A stretch of 64,000 nt of DNA, from the NCBI GenBank assembly GCA_963721805.1, contig CAVRJY010000001.1:499882-563881 (forward strand), written 5' to 3'. Below are positions 1 to 20,951 of the stretch, piece by piece. The position numbers and the translations under genes are program-made. Numbering within the stretch: the first letter of the stretch is position 1; each line of letters opens with the position of its first letter. The notes beneath the pieces were generated by a model. That model ran no database searches. It was not told where the DNA came from and worked only from the letters and a program-made list of their open reading frames with translations. Source of the DNA: Nitrospirota bacterium (GTDB lineage Bacteria > Nitrospirota > Thermodesulfovibrionia > Thermodesulfovibrionales > JdFR-86).

Positions 1-69
1 ATAATGCGGAGAACAAGGCGGCCCTATTTCCTGTATTAAATGTGGTTGGTGAGAGGTAAAATCGGAAAG

Positions 70-735
70 ATGGTCACTGACGAATTTCACTTCGATTTGA
101 ACGCAAAGCGCACTCGCCTTAGCGACGACGATCTTATGATCGCATTGCAGTCTGCTGCTGAGACGCTTGGTGAGGGTTACTTTACGTCCATACAATACAA
201 TGCACTCCCCGGAAAACGGCCTCATTCTGACACAATAAGCGATCGCTTCGGTTCATGGAAAAAGGCACTGACACTCATTGGAATCGCTGGAGGTCGAGAA
301 AGAAAGTATTCGCCCGAAACGCTCATTGACAATATAGAAAACATTTGGAGGAAGTTGGGTTATCCGCCTGGCAAGAGGCAACTCTCAACCTGTGGGGAGA
401 GAATTTCCGAGTCTCCATACAAGAATCACTGGGGTAGCGTGCGTGCCGCATGCGAAGCACTTGAAGAGTTTCACTCTGGAAGAATCTCAAGAGAGCAACT
501 GCTCAAAGGTAAGCCTAATGAACCAACCCGTACAACAATCCCGTTGAAAGATAGATGGGCTGTATTGAAGCGCGACAACTATAGTTGTGCAAAGTGCGGT
601 GCAAGCCCATCCAATGATCACAACGTTGAACTAGAGGTTGACCACAAATTCCCCGTCGCAAGAGGTGGAGAAAATAGCCTTACTAATCTTCAAACACTCT
701 GTCGAAAATGTAACCAAGGGAAGAAAGACAGATAA
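70..735 (+). CDS. HNH endonuclease with two N-terminal homing-endonuclease-associated-type repeats
   Basis: ORF 40..735; C-terminal HNH motif CAKCG...VDHKFPVARGG...NLQTLCRKCN; two internal repeats ending FGSWKKAL and HWGSVRAAC; ATG at 70 follows GAGAGG; visibly lower G+C than the core genes. Confidence 0.8.
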   Translation: MVTDEFHFDLNAKRTRLSDDDLMIALQSAAETLGEGYFTSIQYNALPGKRPHSDTISDRFGSWKKALTLIGIAGGRERKYSPETLIDNIENIWRKLGYPPGKRQLSTCGERISESPYKNHWGSVRAACEALEEFHSGRISREQLLKGKPNEPTRTTIPLKDRWAVLKRDNYSCAKCGASPSNDHNVELEVDHKFPVARGGENSLTNLQTLCRKCNQGKKDR

Positions 736-814
736 TTCCGGCCAACAAAAGACTGTTCAGCAGTCCACTCGAGTAGAAAATAGGAACGGCTCTATCCAAT
801 CAAACCCCTTCAAC

Positions 815-975
815 GGGGGCGCGGGGGGCTCCGTTATCCTCTCCCCCCGAAAGCGCGCCCAAATCGTCTTCAGACAAGGCAGGGCGAGAAGACCGCCCGA
901 TGGTGTACTGAGACGTACATAGAGGGCGCGTCTTCGCAGCCCAACGCAGTATCAAGCGATTTGGAGCGCTTTGAA
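815..975 (+). repeat. Dispersed structured repeat, copy A (plus orientation)
   Basis: Core 843..975 differs from 13271..13403 at only 4 of 133 positions. 5' part folds as GGGCGC/GCGCCC plus G6/C6 stems around a 14-nt loop. The ORFs overlapping copies A and C are in different frames, so the element is non-coding. Confidence 0.85.
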
Positions 976-1033: not shown

Positions 1034-2387
1034 CTATATCTTGGGCAGCTTGGCCAGCGACTCCTTGATCTTCTCTTCCGGATACTCATAGTCCACCAGC
1101 TTCCCCGCCATATAATCGGCATAGGCCATGAGGTCGAGATACCCATGTCCGCTCAGGTTGAACAGTATCGTCTTTTGCTTGCCCTCTTCCTTGGCAGCCA
1201 AGGCCTCGTCTATCGCGGCGCGGATCGCGTGCGAGCTCTCCGGGGCGGGTATGATCCCCTCGGTGTTCGCGAACTGAAGCGCGGCCTCGAAGACCGCGTT
1301 CTGGCCGTACGCCCTCGCCTCGATCAGGCCGTCTTTGTGGAGCTGGCAGACGAGCGGCGAGTCCGCGTGGTATCTGAGCCCTCCGGCGTGGATGCCGGGG
1401 GGCATGAAGTCGTGGCCCAGCGTGTACATCATCATCAGCGGCGTCATGCCGATCGAGTCGCCGAAGTCATACCGGAACTCGCCCTTGGTGAGCGTGGGGC
1501 AGCTTACGGGCTCGACCGCGATCACGCGCAGCTTCTTGCCGTTGATCTTGTCTTGCAGAAACGGGAAGCCGATGCCGCCGAGGTTGCTCCCGCCGCCGCA
1601 GCAGCCGATCACGATGTCCGGGTAGTCGCCCACGAGCGCGAGCTGCTTCTTCGCCTCCTGCCCGATAATGGTCTGGTGCAGCACCACGTGGTTGAGCACC
1701 GAGCCGAGGGCATAGTTCGTATCCGGCCTGCTCGCGGCGTCCTCGACGGCCTCCGAGATCGCGATGCCCAGGCTGCCCTGGCTGTTTGGGTCCTCGGCCA
1801 GTATCTTGCGCCCTGCGTTCGTGGTGTCCGACGGGCTCGGGATGACCTTCGCGCCCCAGGTCTCCATCGCTATGCGGCGGTAAGGCTTCTGGTTATAGCT
1901 GACCTTGACCATATAGACCATGATCTCGATGCCGAACATCTTGCCCGGCCAGCGCGAGCGCCGAGCCCCACTGCCCCGCGCCGGTCTCGGTCGCGATGCG
2001 CTTGATCCCGGCCTGCTTGTTGTAGTAGGCCTGCGGGACCGAGGTGTTGGGCTTGTGGCTCCCGGCCGGGCTCACGCCCTCGTATTTGTAGTAAATCTTG
2101 GCCGGGGTGCCGAGCGCGGCCTCGAGCCTGTGCGCGCGGTACATCGGCGAGGGCCGCCAGAGGGTGTAGATGTCGAGGACCTCCTCGGGGATGTCGATCC
2201 AGCGCTGCGTGCTGACCTCCTGCTCGATCAGGGACATCGGGAAGATCGCGCTTAAGTCCTCCGGGCCTATCGGCTTGTGAGTGCCGGGGTGCAGCGGCGG
2301 CTGGACCGGGTTTGGCATGTCGGCCGCGATGTTATACCACTGGCGCGGCATCTCGGACTGCGGAAGGTTGATGATCGTCTGTCTCAT
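1034..2387 (-). pseudogene. TrpB2-type tryptophan synthase beta-like PLP enzyme, split by one single-base insertion
   Basis: ORFs 1893..2387 (N-terminal part, ...[16 protein letters not shown]) and 1034..1939 ([22 protein letters not shown]...) are consecutive parts of one TrpB2-like protein. The frames join if one C of the CCC run at 1944..1946 is removed. Span minus 1 nt gives 451 codons. Confidence 0.8.
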
Positions 2388-2492
2388 CGAGCTGCGTCCC
2401 CCTTGAGGTTTGGATGTTTCGATTATATCACGGCATATGCGAGGGGGCCCCCTGTTAAATCCCGTGCCTGTTTTCCCTTATAATAAGACCCG

Positions 2493-4883
<2,391 letters not shown>

Positions 4884-4885
4884 CG

Positions 4886-5718
4886 ATGACGCGCAAGGTG
4901 AGCATAGGCGGTGTCGAAATCGGGGCCCGTGGCCCCTTGCTGGTCATCGCCGGGCCCTGCGTGATCGAAGACAAAGAGACGATGATGCAGACCGCAGCCG
5001 AGATGCGCGACATTTGCGCCTCACTTGGACTGCCGTTCGTGTTTAAGAGTTCATACGACAAGGCCAACCGAAGCTCGGTCATCGTCCCCCCGCGGCCCCG
5101 GCATCGAGGCCGGGCTCGCGATGCTCAAAGAGATAAAAGACGCGCTCGGCGTGCCGGTCTTAAGCGACGTGCACACCCCCGAGGAGGCCACTGCGCGCGG
5201 CCAAGGTGCTCGACGCGCTGCAGATCCCGGCGTTCCTGTGCCGCCAGACTGACCTGATAGTCGCGGCCGCAAAGACAGGCAAGCCGGTCAATATCAAGAA
5301 GGGCCAGTTCCTTGCGCCCTGGGACGTCCAGAACATCATCGAGAAGGCCCGCTCTACCGGCAACGAAAATATCATGCTCACCGAGCGCGGGACTACGTTT
5401 GGGTACGGGAACCTCGTCGTGGACTTCAAGGGCGTGGCCCTGATGCGCACGTACGGGTATCCGGTGATATTCGACCTCACGCACAGCTTGCAGCTTCCGG
5501 GTGCTCAGGGCACGTTTACCGGAGGCGAGCGGCAGTACGCCGCGCCGCTGATGCGCGCGGCATGCGGCGCGGGGATAGACGGGCTGTTTATAGAGGTCCA
5601 CCCGGAGCCCGAGCGCGCGCTGTCGGACAAGACGACGGTGCTCCCGCTCTCTGACGTGCGCGCGATGCTCGAGGTCGCGCGCGACATACACGCGATAGTG
5701 AGGCGGGGCGGATTATGA
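4886..5718 (+). pseudogene. kdsA: 3-deoxy-8-phosphooctulonate synthase (KdsA), two single-base insertions
   Basis: [13 protein letters not shown]...[12 protein letters not shown], then [15 protein letters not shown], then [13 protein letters not shown]...FDLTHSLQLPG, in three successive frames. The shifts map to the C6 run near 5085..5090 and to GCGCGCGG near 5188..5195. Corrected length is 277 codons. Confidence 0.85.
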
Positions 5719-5742
5719 AAAGAAAAGAGCGATGAGCGGATC

Positions 5743-6723
5743 ATGAAGAAAAAAGAGATCGACGCGGCCGCCGAGGCCCGAAACGTGATACTGACCGAGG
5801 CCGACGCGCTGCGCGATATGGCCGGGAGGATTACCCAGGACTTCTCACGCGCGGTCGATATGATCGCGGCCTCAAAGGGGCGCCTGATCGTGACCGGCAT
5901 GGGCAAGTCCGGGCTGGTCGGGCAGAAGGTCGCGGCCACGCTGGCCTCGACCGGCACGCCCTCGTTCTTCCTGCACCCGGCCGAGGCCTCGCACGGGGAC
6001 CTCGGGATGGTCACGCGCGAGGACATCGTGCTCGCGATATCCAACAGCGGCTCGACCGAGGAGATCGTAAACATCCTGCCCACGCTCAAACGCTTCGGCG
6101 TCGGGCTGATCTCGATGACCGGAAACGCGGAGAGCGTGCTCGGGCGCGCGTCGGACGTGCACCTCGACGTCGCGGTCTCTAAGGAGGCCTGCCCGCTCGG
6201 GATCGTGCCTACGGCATCGACTACCGCAGCGCTCGCGATGGGCGACGCGCTGGCCGTGGCGCTGCTTTTAAAGAGCGGGTTTAGCGAGGAGGACTTCGCG
6301 GCGTTTCACCCTAGAGGCGCGCTCGGCAAGAAACTGCTCATCCGGGTCTCTGACCTGATGCACGCCAAGGACGCGATGCCGCGCGTCTCGCCCACGATGC
6401 CGATGCGCCACGCCCTGATCGAGATATCGACGAAGCGGCTCGGCCTGACGACCGTGGTCGACCAAAGCGGCGCGCTGCTTGGCGTCATCACGGACGGCGA
6501 CCTCCGCCGCGCGATAGAGACCCACGGGGGCAAGCTGTTTGACCTCACGGCGCAGGACATCATGGGCAAAAGCCCGAGGACGATCAGCGAGGACGAACTC
6601 GCCGCGGCCGCGCTTGCGCGCATGGAGGCCCACGCCATCACCGCGCTCGTAGCGCTTAACGAAAGCGGCTACCCCGTAGGCGTCATCCACATCCACGACA
6701 TCCTCAAGGAGGGCATCGCGTGA
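5743..6723 (+). CDS. kdsD: Arabinose-5-phosphate isomerase (KdsD/KpsF; SIS domain plus two CBS domains)
   Basis: Intact 326-aa ORF; SIS motif VTGMGKSG...; C-terminal CBS pair; located within the KDO cluster. Confidence 0.85.
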   Translation: MKKKEIDAAAEARNVILTEADALRDMAGRITQDFSRAVDMIAASKGRLIVTGMGKSGLVGQKVAATLASTGTPSFFLHPAEASHGDLGMVTREDIVLAISNSGSTEEIVNILPTLKRFGVGLISMTGNAESVLGRASDVHLDVAVSKEACPLGIVPTASTTAALAMGDALAVALLLKSGFSEEDFAAFHPRGALGKKLLIRVSDLMHAKDAMPRVSPTMPMRHALIEISTKRLGLTTVVDQSGALLGVITDGDLRRAIETHGGKLFDLTAQDIMGKSPRTISEDELAAAALARMEAHAITALVALNESGYPVGVIHIHDILKEGIA

Positions 6724-7256
6724 GCCATACCGCGGCCGTGCTCGAGGCCGCCGCGAAGGTGCGCATGCTCATCCTCGACGTCGACGGCGTGCTCACGGAC
6801 GGCGGGATCATACTCGACGACTTCGGCAACGAGATAAAGAAATTCCATGTCCGCGACGGCCACGGCATAAAGCTCGTCCAGCGCGCCGGCATCACCGTGG
6901 CGCTCATCACCGGGCGCAACTCGCGCGTCGTCGCGCACCGCGCGCGCGAGCTCGGCATTAAAGAGGTCCACCAGCGCGTGTTTAAGAAGGCCGAGGTCTA
7001 CGAGGCGATGCGCGACCGCTACTCGCTTAGCGACGAGGAGGTCGCGTTCATAGGCGACGACGTCGTGGACATACCGATACTCGTGCGCGTGGGGCTGCCG
7101 GTCTGCGTGGCCGACGCGGTCGTCGAGGCCAAGGAGCACGCGATGTTCGTCACCGATGCGCCCGGCGGCGGAGGGGCGGTGCGCGAGGTCACGGACCTGA
7201 TCCTCAAGGCCAGGGGGCTCTGGCAGGGCATCATCGATGGCTATAGCAAGGCTTAA
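6720..7256 (+). CDS. kdsC: KDO 8-phosphate phosphatase (KdsC, HAD family)
   Basis: 178-aa ORF; HAD motif LILDVDGVLTDG; 4-nt overlap with kdsD. Confidence 0.8.
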   Translation: MSHTAAVLEAAAKVRMLILDVDGVLTDGGIILDDFGNEIKKFHVRDGHGIKLVQRAGITVALITGRNSRVVAHRARELGIKEVHQRVFKKAEVYEAMRDRYSLSDEEVAFIGDDVVDIPILVRVGLPVCVADAVVEAKEHAMFVTDAPGGGGAVREVTDLILKARGLWQGIIDGYSKA

Positions 7257-7801
7257 CCTCCCGACCGTCCTGAGCCTCAGCCGCATCGTCATCATACCGC
7301 TTTTCATCTACGTCACGCCCGACTATAACGTGCTCGGCGCGGCGATATTCGCCCTGGCCTCGGTCACGGACTTCCTCGACGGATACCTCGCGCGCAGAAA
7401 GGGGCAGATCACGACCTTCGGGATCATCATCGACCCTATCGCGGACAAGTTCCTGGTGATCTCGGCCCTGTTCCTGCTCGTGGACATGGGGAGGCTCTCG
7501 GTGCTCCCGGCGGTCATCATAACCGTCAGGGAGTTTCTGATCACCGCGCTTCGGGGCGTGGCGCTCGCGAAGGACATAGTGATAAAGGCCGAGATGGGCG
7601 GCAAGCTCAAGGTCGGCGCGCAGATCACGGCCGTGATATGCCTGATACTCGGCTGGGACGTTATCGGGATCGATTTCTTCGACCTCGGCATAGCCGCGAT
7701 ATGGGTATCGGTCGTGCTCGGGGTCATCTCCGGGGTGCAGTATATCGTCGCGTTCTGGCGCAGGCTCGCCGCAGAGAACAGGGCAGGGCGACGTTCGGTG
7801 A
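7237..7801 (+). CDS. pgsA: CDP-diacylglycerol--glycerol-3-phosphate 3-phosphatidyltransferase (PgsA); 3' end uncertain
   Basis: CDP-alcohol phosphotransferase motif DFLDGYLARR...G..IDPIADK. The raw ORF runs to 8340 across plsY in another frame. Removing one G near the GGG at about 7785 gives ...NRAGDVR and a stop at 7799..7801 (188 codons). Confidence 0.7.
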
Positions 7802-7828
7802 TCGGCGTCAAGGAGGCGTTGCTGTGCC

Positions 7829-8395
7829 GTGATGGCCTATCTGGTCGGGGGGATCCCGTTCGGCCTGATATTTTCGCGCATGAAGGGCGTGGACCTGCGT
7901 GCGGTCGGCAGCGGCAACATCGGCGCGACCAACGCGCTTCGCGGCGCCGGAAAGACGGTGGCCGCCCTGACGCTGCTGGGCGATATCGCAAAGGGCACGG
8001 CGGCGGTGGCCTTAGGCCGCGCGTTTGGAGCGAGCGAGGCGCTTCAGGGAGCTCTCGGGGTGCTCGCGGTGCTCGGCCACGACTTCCCGGCGTTTTTGGG
8101 CTTCCGGGGGGGCAAGGGCGTTGCGACCAGCCTCGGGGTCATATTGATTTACTTACCGGGGGCTGGTATCCTTACTATAGTTATCTGGCTTATTGTGGCA
8201 TTGGTATTCAGGTATTCGTCACTCGGGGCGCTGGTCTCGTTCGCCGCCCTGCCGTTGGTCGCGTGGGGTCTTGGGTATGGGGGCATCAAGATCGCTGTGG
8301 CGTGCGTCCTGACCGCACTGCTTGTGGCGAGACACCATGAAAACATTCGGAGGCTTCTTGCCGGGACCGAAAGCAGGATCGGCAGCAAAGTCTAG
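7829..8395 (+). CDS. plsY: Glycerol-3-phosphate acyltransferase PlsY
   Basis: 188-aa ORF; GSGNIGATNALR motif; multiple TM segments; AGGAGG upstream. Confidence 0.85.
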   Translation: MMAYLVGGIPFGLIFSRMKGVDLRAVGSGNIGATNALRGAGKTVAALTLLGDIAKGTAAVALGRAFGASEALQGALGVLAVLGHDFPAFLGFRGGKGVATSLGVILIYLPGAGILTIVIWLIVALVFRYSSLGALVSFAALPLVAWGLGYGGIKIAVACVLTALLVARHHENIRRLLAGTESRIGSKV

Positions 8396-10034
8396 CCTCA
8401 TCCTTCTGGCCGGTGCGCTATGCGCCGCGCTGATACTTGCCGTCTCATTCTCCTGGGCGCAGCCGGCCCCGGGCTACCTCGACAAGCTCCTGGACCGCGG
8501 CCTCTCGACGGACAGCTACGAAAGCCGCGTGCTGATGCAGCAGGCCTCCGAGGCCCACGGCGGGGACGCGGCGCGGCTGCTCGCCGATGCGGCAGCGATA
8601 AGCCCGGACCTCCCGGCCGTGCATTTGCGGCTCGCGCTGGCGGCCCTGCCTGACGCGTTTGAGTCGCTAAGCGAGCTGATCGCGGCCGGCGAGGCCTACA
8701 AGCACAGCTTCTGGTGGTCGATGAGCCTGCGCGCAAGCGCGCTGCAAGCCCTCGTGGCCGCCGTCATGCTCGGCCTCGCGGGGCTGATCGCGATCAGGCT
8801 TACGGTCGACCTGCCGCTTTTGATGCACGATATCAACGAAAAACGCGTGCGCCTCATCCTGCCTGCCCTGATGCTCCCGTTTTCGCCCCTGGGGCCGGCC
8901 CTCGTGCTGCTCGCTGCGCTTATGACCGTCTGCCTGTATGCGCGCAAGGGCGTGGCGGTGTTCTATCTGGCGGCGGTCTTCGCGGTAGCGCTGCCCGCGC
9001 TCCAGGGCCCGCTCGATGACGCGTACACCGCCAGCATGCCCCGGATGGCCGCGATAGTCGGCGTCAACGAGGGCTCGACCAACCGCTACGCCATAGGCGT
9101 GCTTGCGGGGCACGACGACTACATGTCGAGGTTCGCTTACGGCCTGGCGCTCAGGCGCGACGGCCGCATAGAGGACTCGGTCGCGGTATTCCGCAAGCTG
9201 CTTGCCGAGACGCCCGATGACGGCCGGGCGCTGATAAACCTCGGCAACGCGCAATTCGCCGCCGGCCGCTTCGCCGAGGCGCGCGACTCATACCAGAAGG
9301 CGTACGATAGCTCAAAGACCGTCGTCTCGGCCTATAACCTGGCCATGGCCTCGCGCGCGCTTTTCGATTACGCCTCGGGCGACAAGTTCTACGCCGAGGC
9401 CGCGGCGCTTGACGCCCAGGTGGTGTCGGCCTTCAACTCCATCGCATCCAAAAACCCGAACCGGACCGTCATGGACTCGGTCTTCACCCACGCCGAACTC
9501 GAGGACTACATCGCGCATAACGCCACTAATGCGGCCTCGCTCTACCCGCTGGGCGGCAAGGCCGCGATGGCCGGGGCCGGGGTGCTGGCCGTGATATTCA
9601 CGGTGCTCCTGTTTTCGGGCATCGGGCTTGCGGGCCGCTGCACGAACTGCGGCAAGGTGCTCTGCGAGCGCTGCGCGCCGACGAGGAACTATGCCGGCAA
9701 GTGCGCCTCGTGCCACAGGCTGCTTGCGGAGTTCGACGACACCAGCCCGAGGGCCAAGGTGGCGCGCATGCTCTCGTCCATGCGCATCAAGGACAAGATG
9801 CGCGACCGCCTGAAGGCGCTCTCGTTCGCCCCGCCGGGCATCGCCCAGATATTCGCCGGGAAGCTCTTGGAGGGTTTCCTCTACCTCACCGGGTTCCTGT
9901 TTCTGGTATTCGCGGCCATACTCGCGGCCGACCCCATCTTCACGGTCGGCCTCGCGGGGCTGACCCACCTCTGGCTCACGCCGCCCCTGGCGGCCGCGGC
10001 GGCCTGCTGTATCTGTTGTCATTCATGTCCGTAA
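8337..10034 (+). CDS. Polytopic membrane protein with TPR repeats and a CxxC...CxxC zinc-ribbon
   Basis: ORF 8322..10034; ATG at 8337; hydrophobic segments, TPR-like region (ALINLGNAQFAAGRFAEARDSYQKAY) and CTNCGKVLCERCAPTRNYAGKCASCH. Confidence 0.6.
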   Translation: MKTFGGFLPGPKAGSAAKSSLILLAGALCAALILAVSFSWAQPAPGYLDKLLDRGLSTDSYESRVLMQQASEAHGGDAARLLADAAAISPDLPAVHLRLALAALPDAFESLSELIAAGEAYKHSFWWSMSLRASALQALVAAVMLGLAGLIAIRLTVDLPLLMHDINEKRVRLILPALMLPFSPLGPALVLLAALMTVCLYARKGVAVFYLAAVFAVALPALQGPLDDAYTASMPRMAAIVGVNEGSTNRYAIGVLAGHDDYMSRFAYGLALRRDGRIEDSVAVFRKLLAETPDDGRALINLGNAQFAAGRFAEARDSYQKAYDSSKTVVSAYNLAMASRALFDYASGDKFYAEAAALDAQVVSAFNSIASKNPNRTVMDSVFTHAELEDYIAHNATNAASLYPLGGKAAMAGAGVLAVIFTVLLFSGIGLAGRCTNCGKVLCERCAPTRNYAGKCASCHRLLAEFDDTSPRAKVARMLSSMRIKDKMRDRLKALSFAPPGIAQIFAGKLLEGFLYLTGFLFLVFAAILAADPIFTVGLAGLTHLWLTPPLAAAAACCICCHSCP

Positions 10035-10053
10035 ACCGGAGGCTCGAAATCGG

Positions 10054-11091
10054 ATGGCTCTAGAGGGATCGCTCAGGGAGTTCAGCCTCGCCGACATATT
10101 GCAGCTCCTGCACTTCCAGCGGAAGACCGGGGTGCTCACGATCGCGGGCAAGTCCGACAAGATCCGGCTGATGTTCAACGAGGGCCAGATAGTCGCGGCC
10201 GAGAGCCAGAAGCGCGACGTCGCGGGGCGCCTGGGCCGGGTGCTGGTATCGCGCGGGATCATAACCGAGGACTCGCTCGAGCAGGCCATCGAACGGCAGA
10301 AGGACTCGGGCATGCGCCTCGGAGAGATACTCATCGCCGACGGCCGCGCCACGCCCGAGGACATCAAGGGCGTGCTCTCGTTTCAGATCACCGAGGCAGT
10401 AAACCAGCTCTTCACCTGGAAGGAGGGCCGGTACGACTTCACCGCGCAGGCCGTGCCCGTGGACCAGGAGCTCTCGGTGAGCCTCGATACGCAGCACGTC
10501 CTGATGGAGGGCCTGCGCCTCCTTGACGAATGGACCCAGCTCGGGGACATGATAAACGTCGATACCGTATTCGTCCAGAGGGAGAACCCCGATGCCGAGG
10601 TCACGGACGAGGAGCAGCGCATACTCGCGTTCGTCGACGGCGCAAACGACGTCGGCACTATCGCGGACCTCACAGGCATAGACAGCTTCAACGTCTCGAT
10701 GCTGCTGCTGGGGCTCATACAGAAGGGCAGGGCCGCCAAGAAAGAGGCGATTACCGCGCAGTCGGTCGCGGCGGTGCGCATCTACATCCCGCCGCCCCCG
10801 GTGCCGCAGCTCACGCTCATCCTCGCCCTGATGCTGGCGGTATCGCTGGCCATAAGCGTGGCGCTCGTCTGGGCCACCGGTGACGTGCGGGCGTTTAAGG
10901 CCGCAACGCAGATAGACCGCATTCGCACCTCTGTCGAAATGCAGCAGCGCATGAGCGGCTCGTACCCGGCGGCGATAGAAGGCACTGACCCGTGGGGGAC
11001 GCCGTATGTATATCAAGCGACCGCGCAGGGATTCACCATCTTCTCCGCAGGGCCGGATCGCACGCCCAACACGCCGGACGACATCCACTAA
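10054..11091 (+). CDS. DUF4388-domain protein with TM helix and GspG-like pseudopilin C-terminal domain
   Basis: N-terminus LEGSLREFSLADILQLLHFQRKTGVLTI (DUF4388 type); C-terminus DPWGTPYVYQATAQGFTIFSAGPDRTPNTPDDI resembles the type II secretion G-protein C-terminal motif. Confidence 0.65.
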   Translation: MALEGSLREFSLADILQLLHFQRKTGVLTIAGKSDKIRLMFNEGQIVAAESQKRDVAGRLGRVLVSRGIITEDSLEQAIERQKDSGMRLGEILIADGRATPEDIKGVLSFQITEAVNQLFTWKEGRYDFTAQAVPVDQELSVSLDTQHVLMEGLRLLDEWTQLGDMINVDTVFVQRENPDAEVTDEEQRILAFVDGANDVGTIADLTGIDSFNVSMLLLGLIQKGRAAKKEAITAQSVAAVRIYIPPPPVPQLTLILALMLAVSLAISVALVWATGDVRAFKAATQIDRIRTSVEMQQRMSGSYPAAIEGTDPWGTPYVYQATAQGFTIFSAGPDRTPNTPDDIH

Positions 11092-11097
11092 ATCGTT

Positions 11098-11266
11098 TTC
11101 AATCCAAAGTCGCGTTAAATACGCGTGATACGTTGTCAGGCCTTCAAAGACGCGCCCTCGGAGTACGTCTCAGTACACCGTCGGGCGGTCTTCTCGCCCT
11201 TCCTAGTCTGACGCGATTTATCGCGCTTTAAGTGGCTGATGCGGGATCGTGCGAGCGGTCAACGGC
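11098..11266 (-). repeat. Dispersed structured repeat, copy B (minus orientation, diverged)
   Basis: The reverse complement aligns with copies A and C through ...GGGCGAGAAGACCGCCCGA.GGTGTACTGAGACGTAC...GAGGGCGCGTCTT...TTTGGA..TTGAA. It starts 7 nt after the stop codon at 11091. The inner end shares GCCGTTGACC with copy C. Confidence 0.8.
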
Positions 11267-11365
11267 ATTGATTAGAGCGCCCCAGCATATTATTATTTGA
11301 TGCCACGCAAAGCAACTAAGGTTTATTTTGACATCATAGGCCATTCAAGAGTATTATAAGAATCT

Positions 11366-11950
11366 ATGGAAACTGAGATAAAATTAAATCAAATAAATAT
11401 TAAGGTTCCTGGCAACTGGAACAGAAGAATTTTTTCACCAGCTTGGATTAGCAAGAATTTTACTGTGCCCGAAGGTATTCGTGAGATAAATTTACTTTTT
11501 AATCCAGACGATATAGAGATCGGCTATAAAATAATGGGAGTGCAAATTTTTCCTAAAGAAAACGAATTGGCCTTAGTTATTGGAAATTCAGACGAAATTA
11601 ACAATGACAACATACTTTTATGTTTTAAGCTTTTCATAAAGATTTTAGACATTCTTCCTCAAACCCCGATAAAAGCAATTGGATTCAATGTGGACTATTT
11701 GTTACCTGTTAATGCAAAGTCTAATTTAGGTGATTGGATAAAAAAGCAAAAACAAGATTATGAAAAGCTCGCAATGAATGGCTTGACATTAAAACAAGAC
11801 ACCGAGAAATATACATTAAATTTAAAAATCGAAATCATCGCAGATACCTTTAAGGTAGATTTTAATTACCATTTCAAAAATTACGTTGACATTGATCAAT
11901 CTCCAGATTTTTTCATAAAGCTTATCGAAGACACAAAGAGGTACTTATAA
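11366..11950 (+). CDS. Hypothetical protein, first gene of AT-rich orphan operon
   Basis: 194-aa ORF in an AT-rich island; no motif recognised; its stop overlaps the next start (TAATG). Confidence 0.6.
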   Translation: METEIKLNQINIKVPGNWNRRIFSPAWISKNFTVPEGIREINLLFNPDDIEIGYKIMGVQIFPKENELALVIGNSDEINNDNILLCFKLFIKILDILPQTPIKAIGFNVDYLLPVNAKSNLGDWIKKQKQDYEKLAMNGLTLKQDTEKYTLNLKIEIIADTFKVDFNYHFKNYVDIDQSPDFFIKLIEDTKRYL

Positions 11951-12435
11951 TGTCTGACTCTCCTAATATGGCGCTCTCAAACACTGAAAACAATGAGCAT
12001 GAAAATATCTGGACATTTTCTATAGAGAATCCACATAACCAATTTAGCTTTAAATTTCCAGAGCGAACTTTTAGGACAAAGTATTTCACTGTCTTAAGCA
12101 ACTTGACGCGCACAGAAGACTACTATGTAACCGCTATAAGAAATTTGCTGAAAAAAACAAATTTCCTTGAATTATATCAACAGCTCTTGGAAGATCAGAT
12201 ATCACAAGAAAGTTTCCATAAAGAACTCGCGGAATCCTCCAATAAGTATGTTGTTGATATACATCCTCTTGCCAACAAAGAAGATATTAATATAATTATA
12301 GGAATTGTCAACAGAATAGGCTATGAACTCAGAGAGTTTTCTGGGAATGAAATTGATGAGCTTTTTTCAACCAATATTAGTGAAGAGATTGCTGCTATCG
12401 ACAGCAGTTCGCTGACGAAAAATCTGTATGGTTAA
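11950..12435 (+). CDS. Hypothetical protein, second gene of AT-rich orphan operon
   Basis: 161-aa ORF; overlaps the upstream gene by 1 nt and the downstream gene by 8 nt; no motif recognised. Confidence 0.6.
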   Translation: MSDSPNMALSNTENNEHENIWTFSIENPHNQFSFKFPERTFRTKYFTVLSNLTRTEDYYVTAIRNLLKKTNFLELYQQLLEDQISQESFHKELAESSNKYVVDIHPLANKEDINIIIGIVNRIGYELREFSGNEIDELFSTNISEEIAAIDSSSLTKNLYG

Positions 12436-12808
12436 GCTAATTGCCCAAGGCGCTTCAATCGAAGGCGAAAGAGTATCAGTATATACTCGCAAACAAATAT
12501 TCCACTCTCTTGTTCAAATAGGAGGTATGACATTATGTAAATACAAATGTTCGACACATGTAAAATCAGAAGTTATAGAGGAACTAATCCCAAAAAGATA
12601 TAAGATCAAAAAGACCTCCAATCTGAATGCTGGAGATTTGTTGGAGGCAGATGTTATTGAAGTATATCCCCAATCTATGCTGACGTTCGAAAAAGAAGCA
12701 AATTATAGTCATACTCATGGCATCCAAACAGCTCAATCAAAAGGTTTCACATATGCTGAAATAGCGATCCCTTTTCGGTTTTTGTTAGAAAGAGCTATTG
12801 GGAGATAA
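12428..12808 (+). CDS. Hypothetical protein, third gene of AT-rich orphan operon
   Basis: 126-aa ORF whose start lies inside the end of the previous ORF (ATGGTTAA); no motif recognised. Confidence 0.55.
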   Translation: MVKLIAQGASIEGERVSVYTRKQIFHSLVQIGGMTLCKYKCSTHVKSEVIEELIPKRYKIKKTSNLNAGDLLEADVIEVYPQSMLTFEKEANYSHTHGIQTAQSKGFTYAEIAIPFRFLLERAIGR

Positions 12809-12927
12809 GAAAATGGGAGAACCGGGACAGCTATACTTTTTACGAATTTCGATGCAGGCGGCCCTCTTCATTAACCACAGTTAATCGGAAGTTAATAGAA
12901 AACGCATGACCCTTCATTTTTCCTATC

Positions 12928-12973
12928 AACCTTCGGTTTATATATAAACCGTAGGTTATCGCATTTTTTATTT
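12928..12973 (+). terminator. Hairpin plus T-run downstream of the orphan operon
   Basis: AACCTTCGGTTTA-TATA-TAAACCGTAGGTT (13-bp stem, one mismatch), followed after 6 nt by TTTTTTATTT. Confidence 0.5.
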
Positions 12974-13219
12974 CGTTGTGCTTCAATACTGCATGAGGCT
13001 GATATGCTCATATTTGAAGGTGCTGAAAACGCGGAAGGATGCCGATGGGCGGCGCGAAAAACGTTTCTGAACGCCTAAACACGGAGGTCGCAAAAAAGCG
13101 ATGAAATCCGCATGGTTAGAAGCTGTTTTCTTCGTTCATTTGAACGCTCTAAAAAAATACGCGCGGCCGCGCGCGGTAAGTATGTATATAACTAAGGCTA
13201 CGGATGCAGGTCAAAGAAA

Positions 13220-13403
13220 GCCGTTGACCTCGTGGGGCGCGGGGGGCGGGGCCGACTGGCCCCCTTCTTTCCCCCCGAAAGCGCGCCCAAATCGGCTTCA
13301 GACAAGGCAGGGCGAGAAGACCGCCCGATGGTGTACTGTGACGTACATAGAGGGCGAGTCTTCGAAGCCCAACGCAGTATCAAGCGATTTGGAGCGCTTT
13401 GAA
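13220..13403 (+). repeat. Dispersed structured repeat, copy C (plus orientation)
   Basis: Core 13271..13403 is near-identical to copy A. It has the same GGGCGC/GCGCCC and G6/C6 stems, but the apical region is replaced by a longer self-pairing insert (CGGGGCC-GACT-GGCCCC). It ends at TTGAA, 10 nt before the regulator promoter. Confidence 0.85.
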
Positions 13404-13413
13404 AAAAAGCTTG

Positions 13414-13443
13414 TTGAGCGGTGGGGCGTTGTGAGGGTATACT
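13414..13443 (+). promoter_or_regulatory. Putative sigma-70-type promoter, possibly giving a leaderless mRNA
   Basis: TTGAGC - 18 nt - TATACT. The -10 element ends 7 nt before ATG 13451, and no Shine-Dalgarno sequence lies between them. Confidence 0.35.
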
Positions 13444-13450
13444 GTTAGTT

Positions 13451-14146
13451 ATGGCTGACAAGGGAAGAATCCTGGTAGTCGAGGACGAACAGAAGATCGC
13501 CGACGTTACCAAGGCCTATCTCGAGCGCGCCGGCTTCGAGGTCGTGCATGCCGCTACAGGCGCGCGCGCGGTCTCGCTCCTGAAGGAGAAGTTCGACCTC
13601 ATCTTGCTTGACCTGATGCTCCCGGACATGGACGGCGAGGAGATATGCCGCCTCGTGCGCGAGCACTCGCAAGTGCCGATCATCATGCTCACGGCCAAGA
13701 GCGCCGAGGACGACCGCGTCAAGGGCCTGGGCATGGGCGCGGACGACTACGTTGTGAAGCCCTTCAGCCCGCGCGAGCTGGTCGCGCGCGTAGAGGCGCA
13801 CCTGAGGCGCACGAAGAAGCCTCAGCACACGATGAAGTTCAACGGCGGGGCGCTGGTTATCAACGTCGAGAACCACGAGGTGCTGGTCGACGGCTGCCCG
13901 ATCACGCTGACCCCGACCGAGTTCAAGATACTCCAGTGCCTGGCCGACAGGCCGCAGGCCGTCCTGGGGCGGCTTCAGCTCGTGAACCTCGTGCAGGGCT
14001 ATGACTTCGAGGGCTACGAGCGCACCATAGACGCGCACGTCAAGAACCTCCGCCACAAGATCGAGGAGGACTCGCGCTCGCCGCGCTTCATCAAGACCGT
14101 CTACGGCATGGGCTACAAGTTCATCGGCACGCGGGATGAGGACTAA
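13451..14146 (+). CDS. OmpR-family response regulator (receiver plus winged-helix)
   Basis: ORF 13421..14146; ATG at 13451 gives MADKGRILVVEDE...DLMLPDMDG...; C-terminal YGMGYKF. Confidence 0.9.
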   Translation: MADKGRILVVEDEQKIADVTKAYLERAGFEVVHAATGARAVSLLKEKFDLILLDLMLPDMDGEEICRLVREHSQVPIIMLTAKSAEDDRVKGLGMGADDYVVKPFSPRELVARVEAHLRRTKKPQHTMKFNGGALVINVENHEVLVDGCPITLTPTEFKILQCLADRPQAVLGRLQLVNLVQGYDFEGYERTIDAHVKNLRHKIEEDSRSPRFIKTVYGMGYKFIGTRDED

Positions 14147-15500
14147 GCTTTTCGTAGCCTTCCTGGCCGTCATCCTCATGGCCCTGCTGTCGAACCTCAT
14201 CTTCCACTACAAGATAATCGACGACTTCGAGGAATACTCGCGCAGCGTCGTCGAGGACGAGCTCTACCTCGTCCTGGCGGCCGTCGAGGGCTGCCGCAAA
14301 GAGGACGGCACGTGGGACCGCGAGGAGCTGGTCGACTCGGTGCGCTGGGCCGCGATGCTCGGTTTCGGCGTCGAGGTGCTCGACGAGGGCGGCCACGTGA
14401 TGCTGACCACCAGGGACTCGCTCCAGGACATCACGCCCGCGCTCTGGCGGAGGGTCAACGCGATAGTTGAGCTCAACTCTCCGGCCGGGGAGTTCGAGGA
14501 CTACCCGCTTTTCTCCGGCGGGGTCGAGATCGGGACGCTCAAGATCAGGCCGCTTCGGAAGCACGGGCTTCAAGCCAAGAAGGAAGACACGTTCAAGCGC
14601 CGCGAGAACGAGTTTCAGAACTTCTCGTTCCTGATCGCGGGGGGCGGTGCGGTATTCCTGGCGCTGATGCTGGTGGCGTACATCACGCGGCCGCTCAGAA
14701 GGCTCAGAGAGGCCGCGTCGCGCGTCGCTTCCGGGGATTTCTCGGTGCGCATCAGGCCTCCGTCGAGCGGGGACGAGATCGAGGAACTCGGCAAGAGCTT
14801 CGACCACATGGTCGAGAGCCTCGAGCGCGAGGAGGCGATCAGGAAGCGGCTCACGTCGAATATCGCGCACGAACTCCGCACGCCGCTTACGGTCATGCGC
14901 GCCCAGATCGAGGCGATCTCGGACGGCGTGATCGAGCCGGACCGCGAGACGATAGATACGCTCTCCGGCGAGGTCCACCGGCTCGTGAGGCTCGTCGAGG
15001 GCATCGAGGAGATCACGCGCGCCGAGGCGAGCATATTCAAGCAGCCCTCGGTCGATTCGGTCAACTTGCGGGGCATGCTCGAGGGCATCGCCCAGTCTCT
15101 GGGCCTGATCTTCGAGCGCAAGGGCCTGAGCCTGGAGCTTGCGGGCCCGGCGCTCGTCGTGCGCACCGATGCCGACAAGCTCGAGATAATCCTCCGGAAC
15201 CTCCTTAACAACGCAGCCCAGCACACCGCGGCCGGAGGCGTCTCGGTCTCGTGGGGCGCGGAGTCCGGGGGCTTCTCCATCGAGGTCAGGGACACCGGCC
15301 CCGGTATCCCGGCCGAGGAGATCCCGCTGCTGTTCAAGCGCTTCTACAAGGGCTCGGCCTCGAGCGGCACCGGCGTCGGGCTCTCGATAGTGCGCGAGCT
15401 GCTCGATATCCTCGGCGGCACCGTTACGGTCATGAGCAAGCCCGGCGAGGGCGCGGTTTTTCGCGTGAGCATACCCGAGGCCGGCTCCAGGCGCAGGTAG
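14136..15500 (+). CDS. Sensor histidine kinase (TM, HAMP, HisKA, HATPase)
   Basis: 454-aa ORF overlapping the regulator stop; H-box AHELRTPLT; G-boxes DTGPGI and GTGVGLSIV. Confidence 0.9.
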   Translation: MRTKLFVAFLAVILMALLSNLIFHYKIIDDFEEYSRSVVEDELYLVLAAVEGCRKEDGTWDREELVDSVRWAAMLGFGVEVLDEGGHVMLTTRDSLQDITPALWRRVNAIVELNSPAGEFEDYPLFSGGVEIGTLKIRPLRKHGLQAKKEDTFKRRENEFQNFSFLIAGGGAVFLALMLVAYITRPLRRLREAASRVASGDFSVRIRPPSSGDEIEELGKSFDHMVESLEREEAIRKRLTSNIAHELRTPLTVMRAQIEAISDGVIEPDRETIDTLSGEVHRLVRLVEGIEEITRAEASIFKQPSVDSVNLRGMLEGIAQSLGLIFERKGLSLELAGPALVVRTDADKLEIILRNLLNNAAQHTAAGGVSVSWGAESGGFSIEVRDTGPGIPAEEIPLLFKRFYKGSASSGTGVGLSIVRELLDILGGTVTVMSKPGEGAVFRVSIPEAGSRRR

Positions 15501-15666
15501 TTGGTGTCTGTCTCAGGGGCGGCCATATCGACCGACGGTTTTTTGGCGCTTGTGTCATGACAGCATGCTCCGGCGGGATATCAGAAGCTGAAAAAGCATT
15601 TAATTACGGCCTGTTACGTCTGGGCATCCATCTTGCATCACTGGGGTTGCAAGGAGGGATCGAGAT

Positions 15667-15864
15667 ATGTCCATTGACAGAGTCGGCGCATCGGCCGCGC
15701 GCGAGGAGCTGTTGGCGATGATAAGGTCTTCGCGTCAGGCGGCACCGGCCGCCCCGGCCCGGAAGCCTCAGCCAGCGGCCCTCACAAGCCCTGCTCCAGC
15801 GCTGGCCGAACGCCCGGTGGCAGAGGGCCGCATGCCGGTCAGGCGCATCAGCATCTACGTCTGA
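15667..15864 (+). CDS. Small Ala/Pro-rich hypothetical protein
   Basis: 65-aa ORF preceded by a strong Shine-Dalgarno sequence (AAGGAGGG, 7-8 nt before the ATG); no motif recognised. Confidence 0.45.
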   Translation: MSIDRVGASAAREELLAMIRSSRQAAPAAPARKPQPAALTSPAPALAERPVAEGRMPVRRISIYV

Positions 15865-15866
15865 AG

Positions 15867-16241
15867 CTATGGGATCGGGTTGCCGCCGATGGTCTGGGTT
15901 AGGGCCTCGATGAGCTGCGGCGTTTCGAAGGGCTTGATCAGCAGGCCGCTCGATGCGATGCTTGAGGCCTCGCGCATGGCGTAAGCATCCATCGTGTCCG
16001 CTATCAGGACGACTGGCACGCTGTGGGTTTCGGTGAGGCTCCTGGCGAGGCTCAGTTTGTTGCGGTCAAACGATATGTCCAGCACCATGGCGTCCGGACG
16101 CGTCTGCTCCAGGAGGGCCGCCGCGTCCTGGCGGTTCGCGGCTATGCCGACCACGTCATAGCCGGCGCGCTGAAGGGCGCTCTGTATGTCCATCGCGATG
16201 ATGGACTGGTCTTCGATTATGAGAACCTTTACCGGCGCCAT
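15867..16241 (-). CDS. Single-domain CheY-like response regulator
   Basis: 124-aa ORF; VLIIEDQ...AMVLDISF...LLIKPF receiver pattern. Confidence 0.85.
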   Translation of the reverse strand: MAPVKVLIIEDQSIIAMDIQSALQRAGYDVVGIAANRQDAAALLEQTRPDAMVLDISFDRNKLSLARSLTETHSVPVVLIADTMDAYAMREASSIASSGLLIKPFETPQLIEALTQTIGGNPIP

Positions 16242-16537
16242 TGCATTGCTCCCTCCCTGCCTACGCTTAGATGTTAAGTGAATGCAAGCAGGAAGGCAAC
16301 TAGGTAATTATACTTACATAGACACAACCGGCTATAGTAAAGCATCGGCCTAAAATTCATATTATGGTTGTATGATATAATGAATTAGTTATAAATAACA
16401 TAAGCATTATTGGTGTTGGCGTAGATGAATTTTTTGAGTTAGCCTGCAAGCATCAGTGTGCGGCGCGCTCTGGATGTCGAACCTATGCTGTGTGTTAAAT
16501 TATCGGATCGGTTCAATGCTATCATTGGGGGAGATCA

Positions 16538-16624
16538 ATGAAAACAGTAATCTGTCGCGGAGGTCTGTGCTGTCTAATGGATGTGTTTAAATGCGCTTGT
16601 ACTAGGGGTGCGGCGCATGTCTGA
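16538..16624 (+). CDS. 28-codon cysteine-rich mini-ORF overlapping the LuxR-type gene start
   Basis: Read by hand: MKTVICRGGLCCLMDVFKCACTRGAAHV. GGGGAG lies 5 nt upstream of the ATG. Its TGA (16622..16624) overlaps ATG 16617 of the next gene. Too short for the ORF track. Confidence 0.3.
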   Translation: MKTVICRGGLCCLMDVFKCACTRGAAHV

Positions 16625-17696
16625 GGGCAAGGGACGCAACAACCTGCGGAAACTCGGCCGCGAGATCAAGCGGCGCAGCATCTGCCTCATGGACCGCGAG
16701 TCCTTCACCGAATCCATCATGCGCCACTTGAAGACCTCGCTCGGGTGCGCCGTTACGGCCGTGGTCCATGCCTCCGATACGGGGCTCGACCTCTGCGGCG
16801 GGATCCTCCTCGGTTTTTCGCCCGAGCGCGTCAACGCTTTTTTCAACAACGACCACGGTAAGCTCGCGGTCTATAAGGACCTTTTTGACGGGGCCAGGCG
16901 ACACGGCTACCACTGCATGTTTTTCAACGACGCCGAAAAGAACGCCAAGCCCATATTTGACGAACTCTACAAGCCCTTCGGCCTGACCTGCGGGGCGAAG
17001 ATCGTCTTCAGCGATGCCGCCGGCTCGGTGATCGGGGCATATACCCTCAGCAGGGAGACGGGCCCCGATTTCAGCGATGCGGAAAAGGAGCTCATCCAGG
17101 ACATTGCGCCTTACGTGTTTTTCGCGTTCAGGCGCTACCGCTGGCTGGTCGCGCTCGATTTTTTCGGCGTGATCCGCCACGACGAGCTGATGTACGGTAT
17201 GCTTATCACCGACGACTCCGGACGCGTAACATACCAAAACGATGCCGCGAGGTTTCTGCTTAAATCCAAGGAGGGCGATACGGTCCCGATGCCGCTGCTG
17301 GGGGTGTCAGGCAGGCTTGAGGCGGCCTCGAACTCCGCCGATAAGCATACGTTTAACTTCAGGGAACTCGAGGCCTACAAGCCCCCTATCGGAGGCGTTA
17401 CCGCCTACAGGTTCGATGAGGCCCATGGCAACGGCCGCCTCCCTGTCAGCGGCTCGGGCTGGGTGTACCTGCTGAACCCCTGCCACAAGGACGAGCGGGA
17501 GAAGTCCCTATTGACGAAACGCGAACTGGAGGTCATAAGGTGCATAGGCCGCGGCCTGCAGGACAAGGAGATCGCGCTTGCGCTTAACATCTCCGAGAAG
17601 ACCGTGCAGGCCTTCGTGCAGAAGATATACAAGAAGCTCAACACCGAAAACCGGACCGAGGCGGCCATGAAGGCCATACGCCTCGGGCTCCAGTAA
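16617..17696 (+). CDS. LuxR-family transcriptional regulator with uncharacterised ~290-aa N-terminal domain
   Basis: ORF 16581..17696; C-terminal HTH LTKRELEVIRCIGRGLQDKEIALALNISEKTVQAFVQKIYKKL; alternative start at 16581. Confidence 0.85.
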   Translation: MSEGKGRNNLRKLGREIKRRSICLMDRESFTESIMRHLKTSLGCAVTAVVHASDTGLDLCGGILLGFSPERVNAFFNNDHGKLAVYKDLFDGARRHGYHCMFFNDAEKNAKPIFDELYKPFGLTCGAKIVFSDAAGSVIGAYTLSRETGPDFSDAEKELIQDIAPYVFFAFRRYRWLVALDFFGVIRHDELMYGMLITDDSGRVTYQNDAARFLLKSKEGDTVPMPLLGVSGRLEAASNSADKHTFNFRELEAYKPPIGGVTAYRFDEAHGNGRLPVSGSGWVYLLNPCHKDEREKSLLTKRELEVIRCIGRGLQDKEIALALNISEKTVQAFVQKIYKKLNTENRTEAAMKAIRLGLQ

Positions 17697-17702
17697 CGCG
17701 CG

Positions 17703-19040: not shown

Positions 19041-19163
19041 AGTCCCTCCTGTAGCTGAGCGTATTCTTTTTTATTGATTAATGGCTGAAAGTATAGTATA
19101 TTTACACGAATAGTATACATGTGGCGTTATGCATATTAAAACAGGGGGTGAAAGGGGAATCCT

Positions 19164-19445
19164 ATGGGAGAAGAAAAACTCTCGAAAGAGGAGTTCATCA
19201 GACAGGCTATCGTAGGGCTCAGGAAAGAGGGGTACAAGGGTATCCATACCGTCTATTCCGGCTTTAACGAGGCCTTCAAAGCCTATTATCCCGGCGAGGA
19301 TCCGATAGTGAACACGACCAAGCTCGCATCCGAGGGCAAGATCGTCATCCGTCCCGTCAGGGGCGGCGTGATGCTATACCTGCCCGAGGACGCCCCCGCT
19401 CAGGGCCGCACGGCCGAGGAGGCTCTCAAAAAAATGGGCCTATGA
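19164..19445 (+). CDS. Small conserved-looking hypothetical protein coupled to nadD
   Basis: 93-aa ORF with a purine-rich Shine-Dalgarno region; its stop overlaps the nadD start (ATGA). Confidence 0.55.
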   Translation: MGEEKLSKEEFIRQAIVGLRKEGYKGIHTVYSGFNEAFKAYYPGEDPIVNTTKLASEGKIVIRPVRGGVMLYLPEDAPAQGRTAEEALKKMGL

Positions 19446-20950: not shown

Positions 20951-20951
20951 G

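Follow-up and report, generated by a model that had tools for sequence, protein, structure and literature searches.

A family of hairpin-forming intergenic elements linked to a probable gene-exchange hotspot in Nitrospirota

Copies and anatomy of the element

The window analyzed here is a 64-kb stretch of a Nitrospirota genome (contig CAVRJY010000001.1, positions 499,882 to 563,881) that contains three copies of a noncoding repeat: copy A at 796-975 on the plus strand, copy B at 11098-11283 on the minus strand, and copy C at 13210-13403 on the plus strand. These belong to a real, uncatalogued family of structured elements, which is built on a known architectural theme and linked to a gene-exchange hotspot. 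A three-copy repeat had been reported at these places in a preliminary description, and both a repeat finder and alignments confirmed it: 839-978 pairs with 13267-13406 at 96% identity, and 11139-11214 is an inverted repeat of both the A and C regions (86-88%). A 20-mer from the core occurs three times in the window, against 0.05 occurrences expected by chance. As had been counted by hand, A (843-975) and C (13271-13403) differ at exactly four of 133 positions, namely 867, 911, 929, and 937. Copy B, on the minus strand, is homologous but diverged, as also claimed, with 77% identity to A and C over the core and 16 gap columns. The 5-nt deletion that had been placed near its TTGAA end is instead an excess of about five bases (CTTTGGATTGAA vs CTTTGAA); its 5' arm is 2 nt shorter, and its core measures 133 nt, compared with 126 nt in A and C. 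A covariance model, R1, was built from five copies, these three and two more (B' and C') from a sister-species locus designated L005. On the window, R1 scores the copies at 128-156 bits (E values of 1e-29 to 1e-36), and with filters off it finds no match beyond A, B, and C in the 64 kb.

The element is modular, with a unit of ca. 185-200 nt that runs from a 19-nt box through a GC hairpin or a 27-nt linker to a core of 126-133 nt. It thus extends further 5' than first marked, to a conserved box, CTAATCAA(T)GCCGTTGACC, that is common to all copies and is the best-conserved piece between subtypes (18 of 19 positions). Copy A begins with a degenerate box variant, v1 (CCAATCAAACCCCTTCAAC; 796-814, plus strand), that aligns with the box of the other copies. 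It is followed on the same strand by the GC hairpin at 815-849, delimited by sequence and fold (G-run 815-829, 13-nt loop 830-842, C6 843-848), and by a core of the type that we call C-type (850-975), a long imperfect hairpin of 126 nt that scores 150.8 bits and has a minimum free energy of -60.7 kcal/mol with 43 bp. Copy C has the same layout on the plus strand, with a v2 box (GTCAAAGAAAGCCGTTGACC) at 13210-13229, the GC hairpin at 13234-13277, and a 126-nt C-type core at 13278-13403 (155.8 bits). The minus-strand copy B has a B-type core at 11098-11229 (133 nt including a TTGAA tail, 127.7 bits), which folds with -55.5 kcal/mol in the forward and -50.7 kcal/mol in the reverse direction; a linker of 27 nt at 11230-11256, which replaces the GC hairpin and carries two substitutions relative to L005; and a v2 box (CTAATCAATGCCGTTGACC) at 11257-11275, where homology with L005 stops. 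Beyond this box, a remnant of the G-run, GGGGCGC, remains at 11277-11283 on the minus strand, at the edge of a low-GC island; its equivalent in L005 is a full GGGGGCGGGGGGC.

The GC hairpin of A and C consists of GGGGCGCGGGGGGC, a variable loop, and CCCCCC. Its stem is conserved and its loop varies among A, C, and C', which supports the earlier proposal that stems are kept while tips and loops are free to vary. The apical part does differ between the two copies as described, comprising 13 nt in A and, in C, a 23-nt insert with a GGGGCC-GACT-GGCCCC hairpin of its own at 13248-13263. The GGGCGC/GCGCCC and G6/C6 stems with a GAAAGC bulge that had been drawn for this region are present in the sequence; however, the outer one, GGGCGC/GCGCCC, is in competition with the core's basal helix (AAAGCGC/GCGCTTT), and the fold loses 8-11 kcal/mol when this stem is enforced. 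The extended 5' hairpin, considered as a riboswitch-like alternative fold, falls 8-11 kcal/mol short of the full core in stability, although it may have a kinetic role.

Each core forms a single long, imperfect hairpin with 43-44 bp (-55 to -62 kcal/mol), and the fold of the whole element is more stable than that of shuffled sequences, with z = -6.0 for A and -5.0 for C. The center of the core is an inverted doublet, of the repetitive extragenic palindromic (REP) type, of a palindromic 17-mer: GGGCGAGAAGACCGCCC and its imperfect inverse GGGCGCGTCTTCGCAGCCC stand 25 nt apart around a GTAC-TGAGAC-GTAC hairpin. Toward the ends of the core lie further inverted arms (AAAGCGC..CCAAATCG and CGATTTGG..GCGCTTT), and the extreme ends, AAAGCGCGCCCAAATCG and CGATTTGGAGCGCTTT, pair as terminal inverted repeats like those of a MITE (miniature inverted-repeat transposable element). 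An alternative fold has each half pairing with itself, forming GGGCG-AGAAGAC-CGCCC and GTCTTC...GAAGAC.

Genomic setting in two species

The host genome is GC-rich, with a third-codon-position GC content (GC3) of 0.8-0.9, and the closest named relatives of its DUF4388 protein are in Nitrospirota. Each copy of the element has a core transcription unit on one side and low-GC foreign DNA on the other, as the preliminary description had noted of the lower-GC DNA beside A and C, and in all five copies, including B' and C', the foreign DNA is on the box side. Copy A lies between a gene for an HNH endonuclease on its 5' side (40-735, plus strand; GC3 0.46) and the terminator of a convergent gene encoding a pyridoxal phosphate (PLP) enzyme. 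This terminator, a strong hairpin at 989-1017 with a long T-run on the minus strand and TTTGT on the plus strand, could serve as the 3' end of a forward transcript from A. Roughly 10 kb of housekeeping genes separates A from B, whose core starts 7 nt past the stop codon of the DUF4388 gene, which is on the other strand and closes a long housekeeping operon (kdsB-pyrG-kdsA ... DUF4388). The core of C ends 10 nt before the -35 element of the promoter of an operon encoding an OmpR-type response regulator and a kinase. This predicted promoter (TTGAGC-N18-TATACT, 13414-13451, plus strand) is 92% conserved in L005, with the ATG of the response-regulator gene 7 nt after the -10 element. No Shine-Dalgarno sequence is found at normal spacing from this ATG, and the arrangement is kept in L005; the mRNA may be leaderless.

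The HNH protein (231 amino acids) has only the HNH and HNH_repeat domains of Pfam, the latter being a homing-endonuclease-associated repeat. It has more than 1,200 homologues, of which the best (70-79% identical) come from very different phyla (Nitrotoga, Gammaproteobacteria, Elusimicrobiota), and these homologues usually sit in islands rich in toxin-antitoxin systems. DNA homology to them is limited to the gene itself (73-746), a pattern that points to a self-contained, widely travelling selfish mobile gene. An RNA associated with the HNH gene was considered and rejected, for seven homologue loci from other phyla share only the gene, with no hairpin core nearby.

Copies B and C are inverted relative to each other and face outward, bracketing a low-GC island of 1.76 kb (11284-13045, plus strand; 31-39% GC, GC3 ca. 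0.3). The island carries three open reading frames (ORFs) at 11366-11950, 11950-12435, and 12428-12808; the first has no homologue among 5.8 billion proteins, and none of the three matches Pfam or PADLOC. Its right edge lies 190 nt from C, and the DNA in between (13046-13206) is an ordinary intergenic stretch, 78% identical to L005, that includes a fully conserved AT-rich block, GGTAAGTATGTATATAACTAAG. In a dif/Xer-like reading of this block (13176-13197), only its central TGTATA matches. Also between the island and C, on the minus strand at 13160-13175, is a strong GC hairpin with a T7 run, which is kept in L005 (ca. 12400-12420) with different stem sequences; there is no minus-strand gene for it to terminate. 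No transposase, integrase, or reverse transcriptase was found among the proteins of the 64-kb window or in the L005 gene list (21 kb).

The sister-species locus L005 is a contig in the European Nucleotide Archive (ENA) that was found via the one close relative (86% identity) of the DUF4388 protein. It is syntenic with 1035-11275 and 13046-21843 of the window, at 86.5-87.3% nucleotide identity. B' and C' occupy the same positions as B and C, between the DUF4388 gene and the response-regulator/kinase operon. The element is found at orthologous sites in a second species, a check of related genomes that the preliminary description had suggested. The interval between B' and C' is unrelated to the island of the window. 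It contains a CopG antitoxin gene and, on the other strand, an orphan ORF of 150 amino acids that matches neither Pfam nor PADLOC, leaving CopG as the only recognizable cargo in L005. Upstream of the CopG gene, at 12120-12165 of L005, the palindrome GGAAC(T/C)(G/A)GTTCC occurs three times, probably as the CopG operator. The syntenic site in L005 has neither copy A nor the HNH gene. However, the v1 box of A is 88-90% identical to a fragment upstream of B', and that fragment, which comprises a v1 box and a G-run, is ca. 90% identical to the 5' flank of A; the presence of an A-like piece beside B' indicates that modules were shuffled among copies. The G-run at the island edge is truncated to different extents in the two species. 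Two more distant relatives, L006 and L007 (66-67% protein identity), have neither the synteny nor the element. The Logan contig that carries protein P0122 ends 80 nt past the DUF4388 stop codon and so within B', where the assembly graph seems to branch; such a branch would fit either a repeat or population variation in the slot.

Conservation of the fold and its interpretation

Comparison with L005 showed the element to be conserved well above its surroundings. Coding DNA is 87.7% identical between the two species, four-fold degenerate sites 71.6%, and other intergenic stretches 69-86%, compared with 97.8% for the B unit (11092-11275), 99.2% for the B core, and 94.3% for the C core. The excess is significant for B (P <= 7e-7) and, depending on the baseline, for C (P = 0.012 to 2e-10). 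For B, identity rises sharply at the DUF4388 stop codon and the rise stops at the box. One paralogue, B, is conserved beyond the neighboring essential genes. Conservation is not protein-coding, as had been argued, because the overlapping ORFs are not conserved; the ORF at 13101-13448, for example, is broken in L005 by a 10-nt indel and the loss of its ATG. Nor is there a conserved small ORF on either strand, given that a 16-codon reverse and a 3-codon forward ORF of the C-type have no start in the B-type. A type I toxin-antitoxin system, with a small hydrophobic ORF antisense to the RNA, was discarded for the same absence from the B-type.

The substitutions respect the fold. Among the C-type cores (A, C, and C'), eight of nine variable columns are unpaired, compared with 32% of all columns (binomial P = 6.7e-4), and the ninth changes G-C to G-U on the forward strand. 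Between C and C', six of 40 unpaired positions changed, versus one of 86 stem positions. The sole difference between the B and B' cores falls in a 1x1 mismatch, and even the loops of the B-type are frozen between species. When the two subtypes are compared, the basal stem has a double compensatory change from U-A to G-C, found by the covariation analyses, and another from C-G to U-A, found by hand alignment of the folds; a bulge switches strand, and three pairs alternate between G-C and G-U, which are standard pairs on the forward strand only. The compensatory changes for which the preliminary description had proposed a test were found in the sense of structure-respecting substitutions; classical covariation is thin among five sequences. 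A and C differ at four positions, whereas A vs C' and C vs C' differ at seven each, and A has private substitutions at 929 and 937. Since A and C resemble each other more than either resembles C', A arose or was homogenized after the species split, and the data show at least two old subtypes, B-type and C-type, plus a recent extra copy, A.

Orthologous copies with a preserved fold in sister species indicate a selected structured element, and the sequence data show the fold to be under purifying selection. Three roles had been offered unranked: the end of a mobile element, a recombination site, and a structured noncoding RNA. Selection on the fold favors a folded nucleic acid, either RNA or single-stranded DNA, over a plain end bound by a transposase as double-stranded DNA, which we disfavor, and it likewise speaks against a MITE in decay.

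We favor, at a probability of about 45%, the reading that the element is transcribed in the forward direction, from box to core, as a structured RNA of an uncatalogued family. We infer that the active form would be RNA rather than single-stranded DNA, that it would be read from the forward strand, that it might act as a stable noncoding RNA or as an insulator at transcript ends, and that its origin would be REPIN-like. Forward-strand RNA is favored because of the G-U alternations, the better fold of the B-type in the forward direction (by 5 kcal/mol), and the structure-only constraint in the C-type cores. Structure-only constraint is typical of RNA. The proposed system would be a small, lineage-restricted family of modular noncoding elements in which selection maintains the hairpin fold itself. 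Transcription would run from box to core and, in every copy, from foreign AT-rich DNA toward the core transcription unit. The architecture suggests descent from REPIN/ERIC-like palindromic repeats, and the inverted pair formed by B and C would mark both edges of a slot for the exchange of foreign gene cassettes.

Several observations weigh against transcription as a forward-strand RNA. No promoter arrangement around the box (TTGACC as a -35 element, with AT-rich hexamers upstream, on both strands) is conserved across the copies. Moreover, because the sequence upstream of the B box is not conserved between species, a promoter would need to lie within the box and linker, where the available -10 element is poor. 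A clear forward terminator downstream is present at A only, and the strong, conserved minus-strand terminator beyond C would fit a transcript of the reverse strand. The C-type cores fold equally well on both strands. An automatic alignment of the five sequences yielded one covarying pair, at a score that 55 of 500 shuffles reach; with only five sequences classical covariation is thin, and our interpretation does not lean on it. The near-total conservation of B, loops included, could come from recent exchange between the species and not from purifying selection. The constant adjacency of foreign DNA and the inverted orientation of B and C follow more directly from a role at the DNA level. If the RNA reading is nevertheless correct, the element would represent a new, strongly constrained family of structured RNA in a poorly studied phylum, with an unusually clean pattern of stems frozen and loops free. 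Under either an RNA or a DNA reading, R1 would serve as a marker for variable slots in related genomes, though with so narrow a distribution and so low a copy number, wider impact would depend on the demonstration of a function.

The best-surviving alternative, which we consider possible but rather unlikely, is that the copies are recombination sites recognized as folded DNA, or the structured ends of a cargo-carrying, nonautonomous mobile element. Copy B would then be a left-end type and A and C right-end types, and an enzyme encoded elsewhere would recognize the hairpins as single-stranded DNA, as with attC sites, IS200/IS605 ends, or REPINs, with cassettes swapped or inserted at the box/G-run side. 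The position of low-GC foreign DNA on the box side of all five copies and the inverted, outward-facing arrangement of B and C speak for this, as does a cargo that differs wholly between the species while the ends are kept and exceed the host background in similarity, a pattern that suits exchange through a shared pool. Distinct left and right ends are also what one would expect of a copy A that is 96.8% like C and 77% like B. The absence of A and the HNH gene from the syntenic site, the shuffling of a v1-box/G-run fragment to B', the unequal cutting of the G-run at the island edge in the two species, and the contig break inside B' are all consistent with it, and selection on the fold is expected for hairpin-recognized sites as well. 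In addition, insertion elements are known to target structured intergenic repeats (bioRxiv 10.64898/2026.03.19.712850). However, neither the 64-kb window nor the 21 kb of L005 encodes a recombinase, transposase, or integrase, no target-site duplication was found, and the attC core sites RYYYAAC/GTTRRRY are missing from four of the five copies. The 190 nt of ordinary intergenic DNA between C and the right island edge is not readily accommodated either, the cargo ORFs are orphans, and the lack of copies in viral, plasmid, phage, GTDB-representative, and JGI collections would be odd for a successful mobile family. Were the DNA reading true, the copies would be boundary elements of a gene-exchange hotspot, possibly with a new, shape-based mode of integration-site recognition. 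It is quite improbable, in our view, that the hairpin cores are recognition sites of a cassette-capture or exchange system new to Nitrospirota, analogous in function to attC, with sites recognized as folded single strands, but with neither the attC core nor a nearby integrase; the inverted pair would in that case delimit a chromosomal slot whose genes are replaced wholesale between sister species, and a solo site like A would serve to capture selfish genes, the HNH endonuclease being one.

It is also doubtful that the copies are selfish repeats of the REPIN, ERIC, or MITE type with no host function, in which conservation would reflect gene conversion or recent spread and the hairpin would simply be the pairing of inverted arms. 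The architecture matches, in that a GC-rich palindromic 17-mer forms an inverted doublet around a spacer and the unit is ca. 126-133 bp long, intergenic, noncoding, and found in both orientations, and the greater similarity of A and C to each other (four differences) than to C' (seven each) fits duplication or conversion within the genome after the split. Resident orthologues of such a repeat should, however, diverge at the intergenic rate of 14-31%, compared with the 0.8% and 5.7% observed. A neutral repeat resident since speciation would have decayed to ca. 70-85% identity, so copies at 94.3-99.2% disfavor a neutral selfish repeat. The substitutions also avoid stems, and this, together with a divergence far below the intergenic rate, indicates selection on individual resident copies. 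Three copies in 64 kb with none in the other 50 kb (filters of the covariance model off), no singlet 17-mers, no target-site duplication, and no RAYT or insertion sequence (IS) in the window are further difficulties. Finally, it is highly improbable that copy A, or the near-identity of A and C, is an artefact of a collapsed or mis-joined repeat, a concern raised at the outset, for even though repeats this long can mis-join contigs and the Logan assembly breaks in B', A is set apart by its private substitutions at 929 and 937, its loop, and its 5' box, and an independent assembly from another species also contains B and C at these loci.

Known element classes and other features of the window

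Searches for relatives recovered no further copies. Pattern scans of GTDB representative genomes gave four matches, all of them chance hits in coding sequence of haloarchaea and one actinomycete; a first pattern scan of JGI metagenome contigs gave none and a second one chance match (L008); two scans of IMG/VR viral contigs found no copies; and blastn against phage and plasmid records gave no match. From these sequence searches, the family looks restricted to this lineage, having been seen in two genomes. With Rfam 15, the A, B, and C regions gave only terminator-driven or microRNA noise of at most 22 bits at E values up to 10, and no match to any Rfam family, including 6S, HEARO, IS605-orfB, msr, STAXI, SRP, and Y RNA. 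The possibility raised earlier that a known REP/BIME, MITE, or Rfam family would explain the structure was therefore not borne out for Rfam, although the core does have the palindromic-repeat architecture of REPINs and ERICs. Singlet 17-mers do not occur in the 64 kb. A near-match at 20328 lies in coding sequence, within 20150-20422, a stretch that translates as the conserved end of a gene resembling a ribosome-silencing factor (...IDYGDVVVHVF), and we take it to be a coding coincidence on that account.

The closest architectural parallel is with palindromic repeats. The core resembles a REPIN in being an extragenic, noncoding inverted doublet found in both orientations, in forming a hairpin of ca. 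100 nt or more in single-stranded DNA or RNA, and in having a half-by-half alternative fold. REPINs consist of two inverted copies of a short GC-rich palindrome that, with a spacer, form a hairpin (PMC3116915). Unlike REPINs, there are three copies in 64 kb and no RAYT in the window or L005; the box, GC hairpin, and basal arms extend the unit to ca. 190 nt; and the orthologues are conserved above the coding level, with stem-sparing changes and a tight association with foreign DNA. The REP hairpins that serve as "safe" integration targets of IS110-family elements such as ISPpu10 (bioRxiv 10.64898/2026.03.19.712850) are similar as conserved intergenic hairpin repeats with mobile DNA accumulating beside them, but no IS110/DEDD recombinase or bridge RNA is seen here, and the inserts are unrelated gene sets and not one IS. 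The length of the core, 126-133 nt, is close to the ca. 127 nt of ERIC-type repeats, and the two share a long imperfect-palindrome hairpin and an intergenic position at gene ends in either orientation. Bacterial MITEs of the ERIC and Correia type are imperfect palindromes of ca. 100-150 bp in transcribed intergenic DNA. The present element differs from them in having no duplication of TA or another target, no sequence relationship, a very low copy number as seen here, a host from another phylum, and a measured conservation between species at orthologous positions. Its flanks, CCG|...|GAA for A and C and CTT|...|GGA for B, reveal no consistent target-site duplication, and no parent IS with matching ends and a transposase lies within the 64-kb window.

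The element can also be compared with integron attC sites, above all the near-identical repeats of 120-130 nt in sedentary chromosomal integrons, and with CALINs. It shares with attC sites a hairpin of similar length, the retention of structure over loop sequence, and a position beside small, promoterless-looking, low-GC cassettes of the orphan or toxin-antitoxin kind (CopG in L005). Here, however, B and C are inverted and do not form a co-oriented array, no IntI or other tyrosine recombinase was found, and housekeeping operons lie between A and B. An attC/CALIN identity was rejected on inspection of the alignment, as R'' and R' are absent from four of five copies and only A approaches them, with CTTCAAC (six of seven) and TTTGAAG (five of seven); in B, B', C, and C' the 5' side reads GTTGACC and the 3' end lacks GTT. 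6S RNA is largely double-stranded, with a closing stem, a partly open middle, and a terminal stem. In the core, too, a closing and a terminal stem flank a conserved middle that is partly open (CAGACAAGGCA opposite AACGCAGTATC), but the core gave no Rfam 6S match at E <= 10, is only 126-133 nt long, occurs in three copies with an extra 5' hairpin, and is not predicted to form a large bubble.

Four further identities were rejected. A retron msr-msd is not indicated, with no reverse transcriptase domain in the scanned ORFs of the window and no msr match. An OMEGA guide RNA (IscB/TnpB) or HEARO is opposed by the adjacent HNH protein, which has HNH and HNH_repeat domains only and is no RuvC-containing IscB or TnpB, by homologues of that protein that have no such RNA, and by Rfam. 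The cores are not intrinsic terminators, as they are followed by TTTGAA (forward) or TTTCGG/TTTAAG (reverse) and not by a U-tract of four to five or more; a terminator scan of the elements flagged nothing but C's apical insert and a weak sub-hairpin of B. Finally, the copies do not fit the template and variable repeats of a diversity-generating retroelement (DGR), since A and C differ in ways that are not adenine-specific and the repeats do not lie within a gene.

Elsewhere in the window, the sole match at the Rfam 15 gathering thresholds is a c-di-GMP-I riboswitch (53509-53607, plus strand, 45 bits), which lies upstream of tandem multihaem cytochrome c genes (53834-55153 and 55392-56693). These two genes are duplicates of 82-85% identity, and their terminators are duplicated too. 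A 77-nt tandem duplication at 30328-30481 (97% identical) spans the start codon and first codons of an FMN-reductase gene (30456), placing a decoy start upstream. Two adjacent minus-strand ORFs at 49409-50414, with GC3 of 0.54-0.57 and no Pfam match, have a LysR regulator gene on one side and an Fe-S/NrfD gene pair on the other, and possibly represent a further small foreign insert. A large minus-strand gene at 61364-63973 encodes a protein with Kelch and Flg_new repeats and contains internal DNA repeats of 300 nt that are 63-81% identical.

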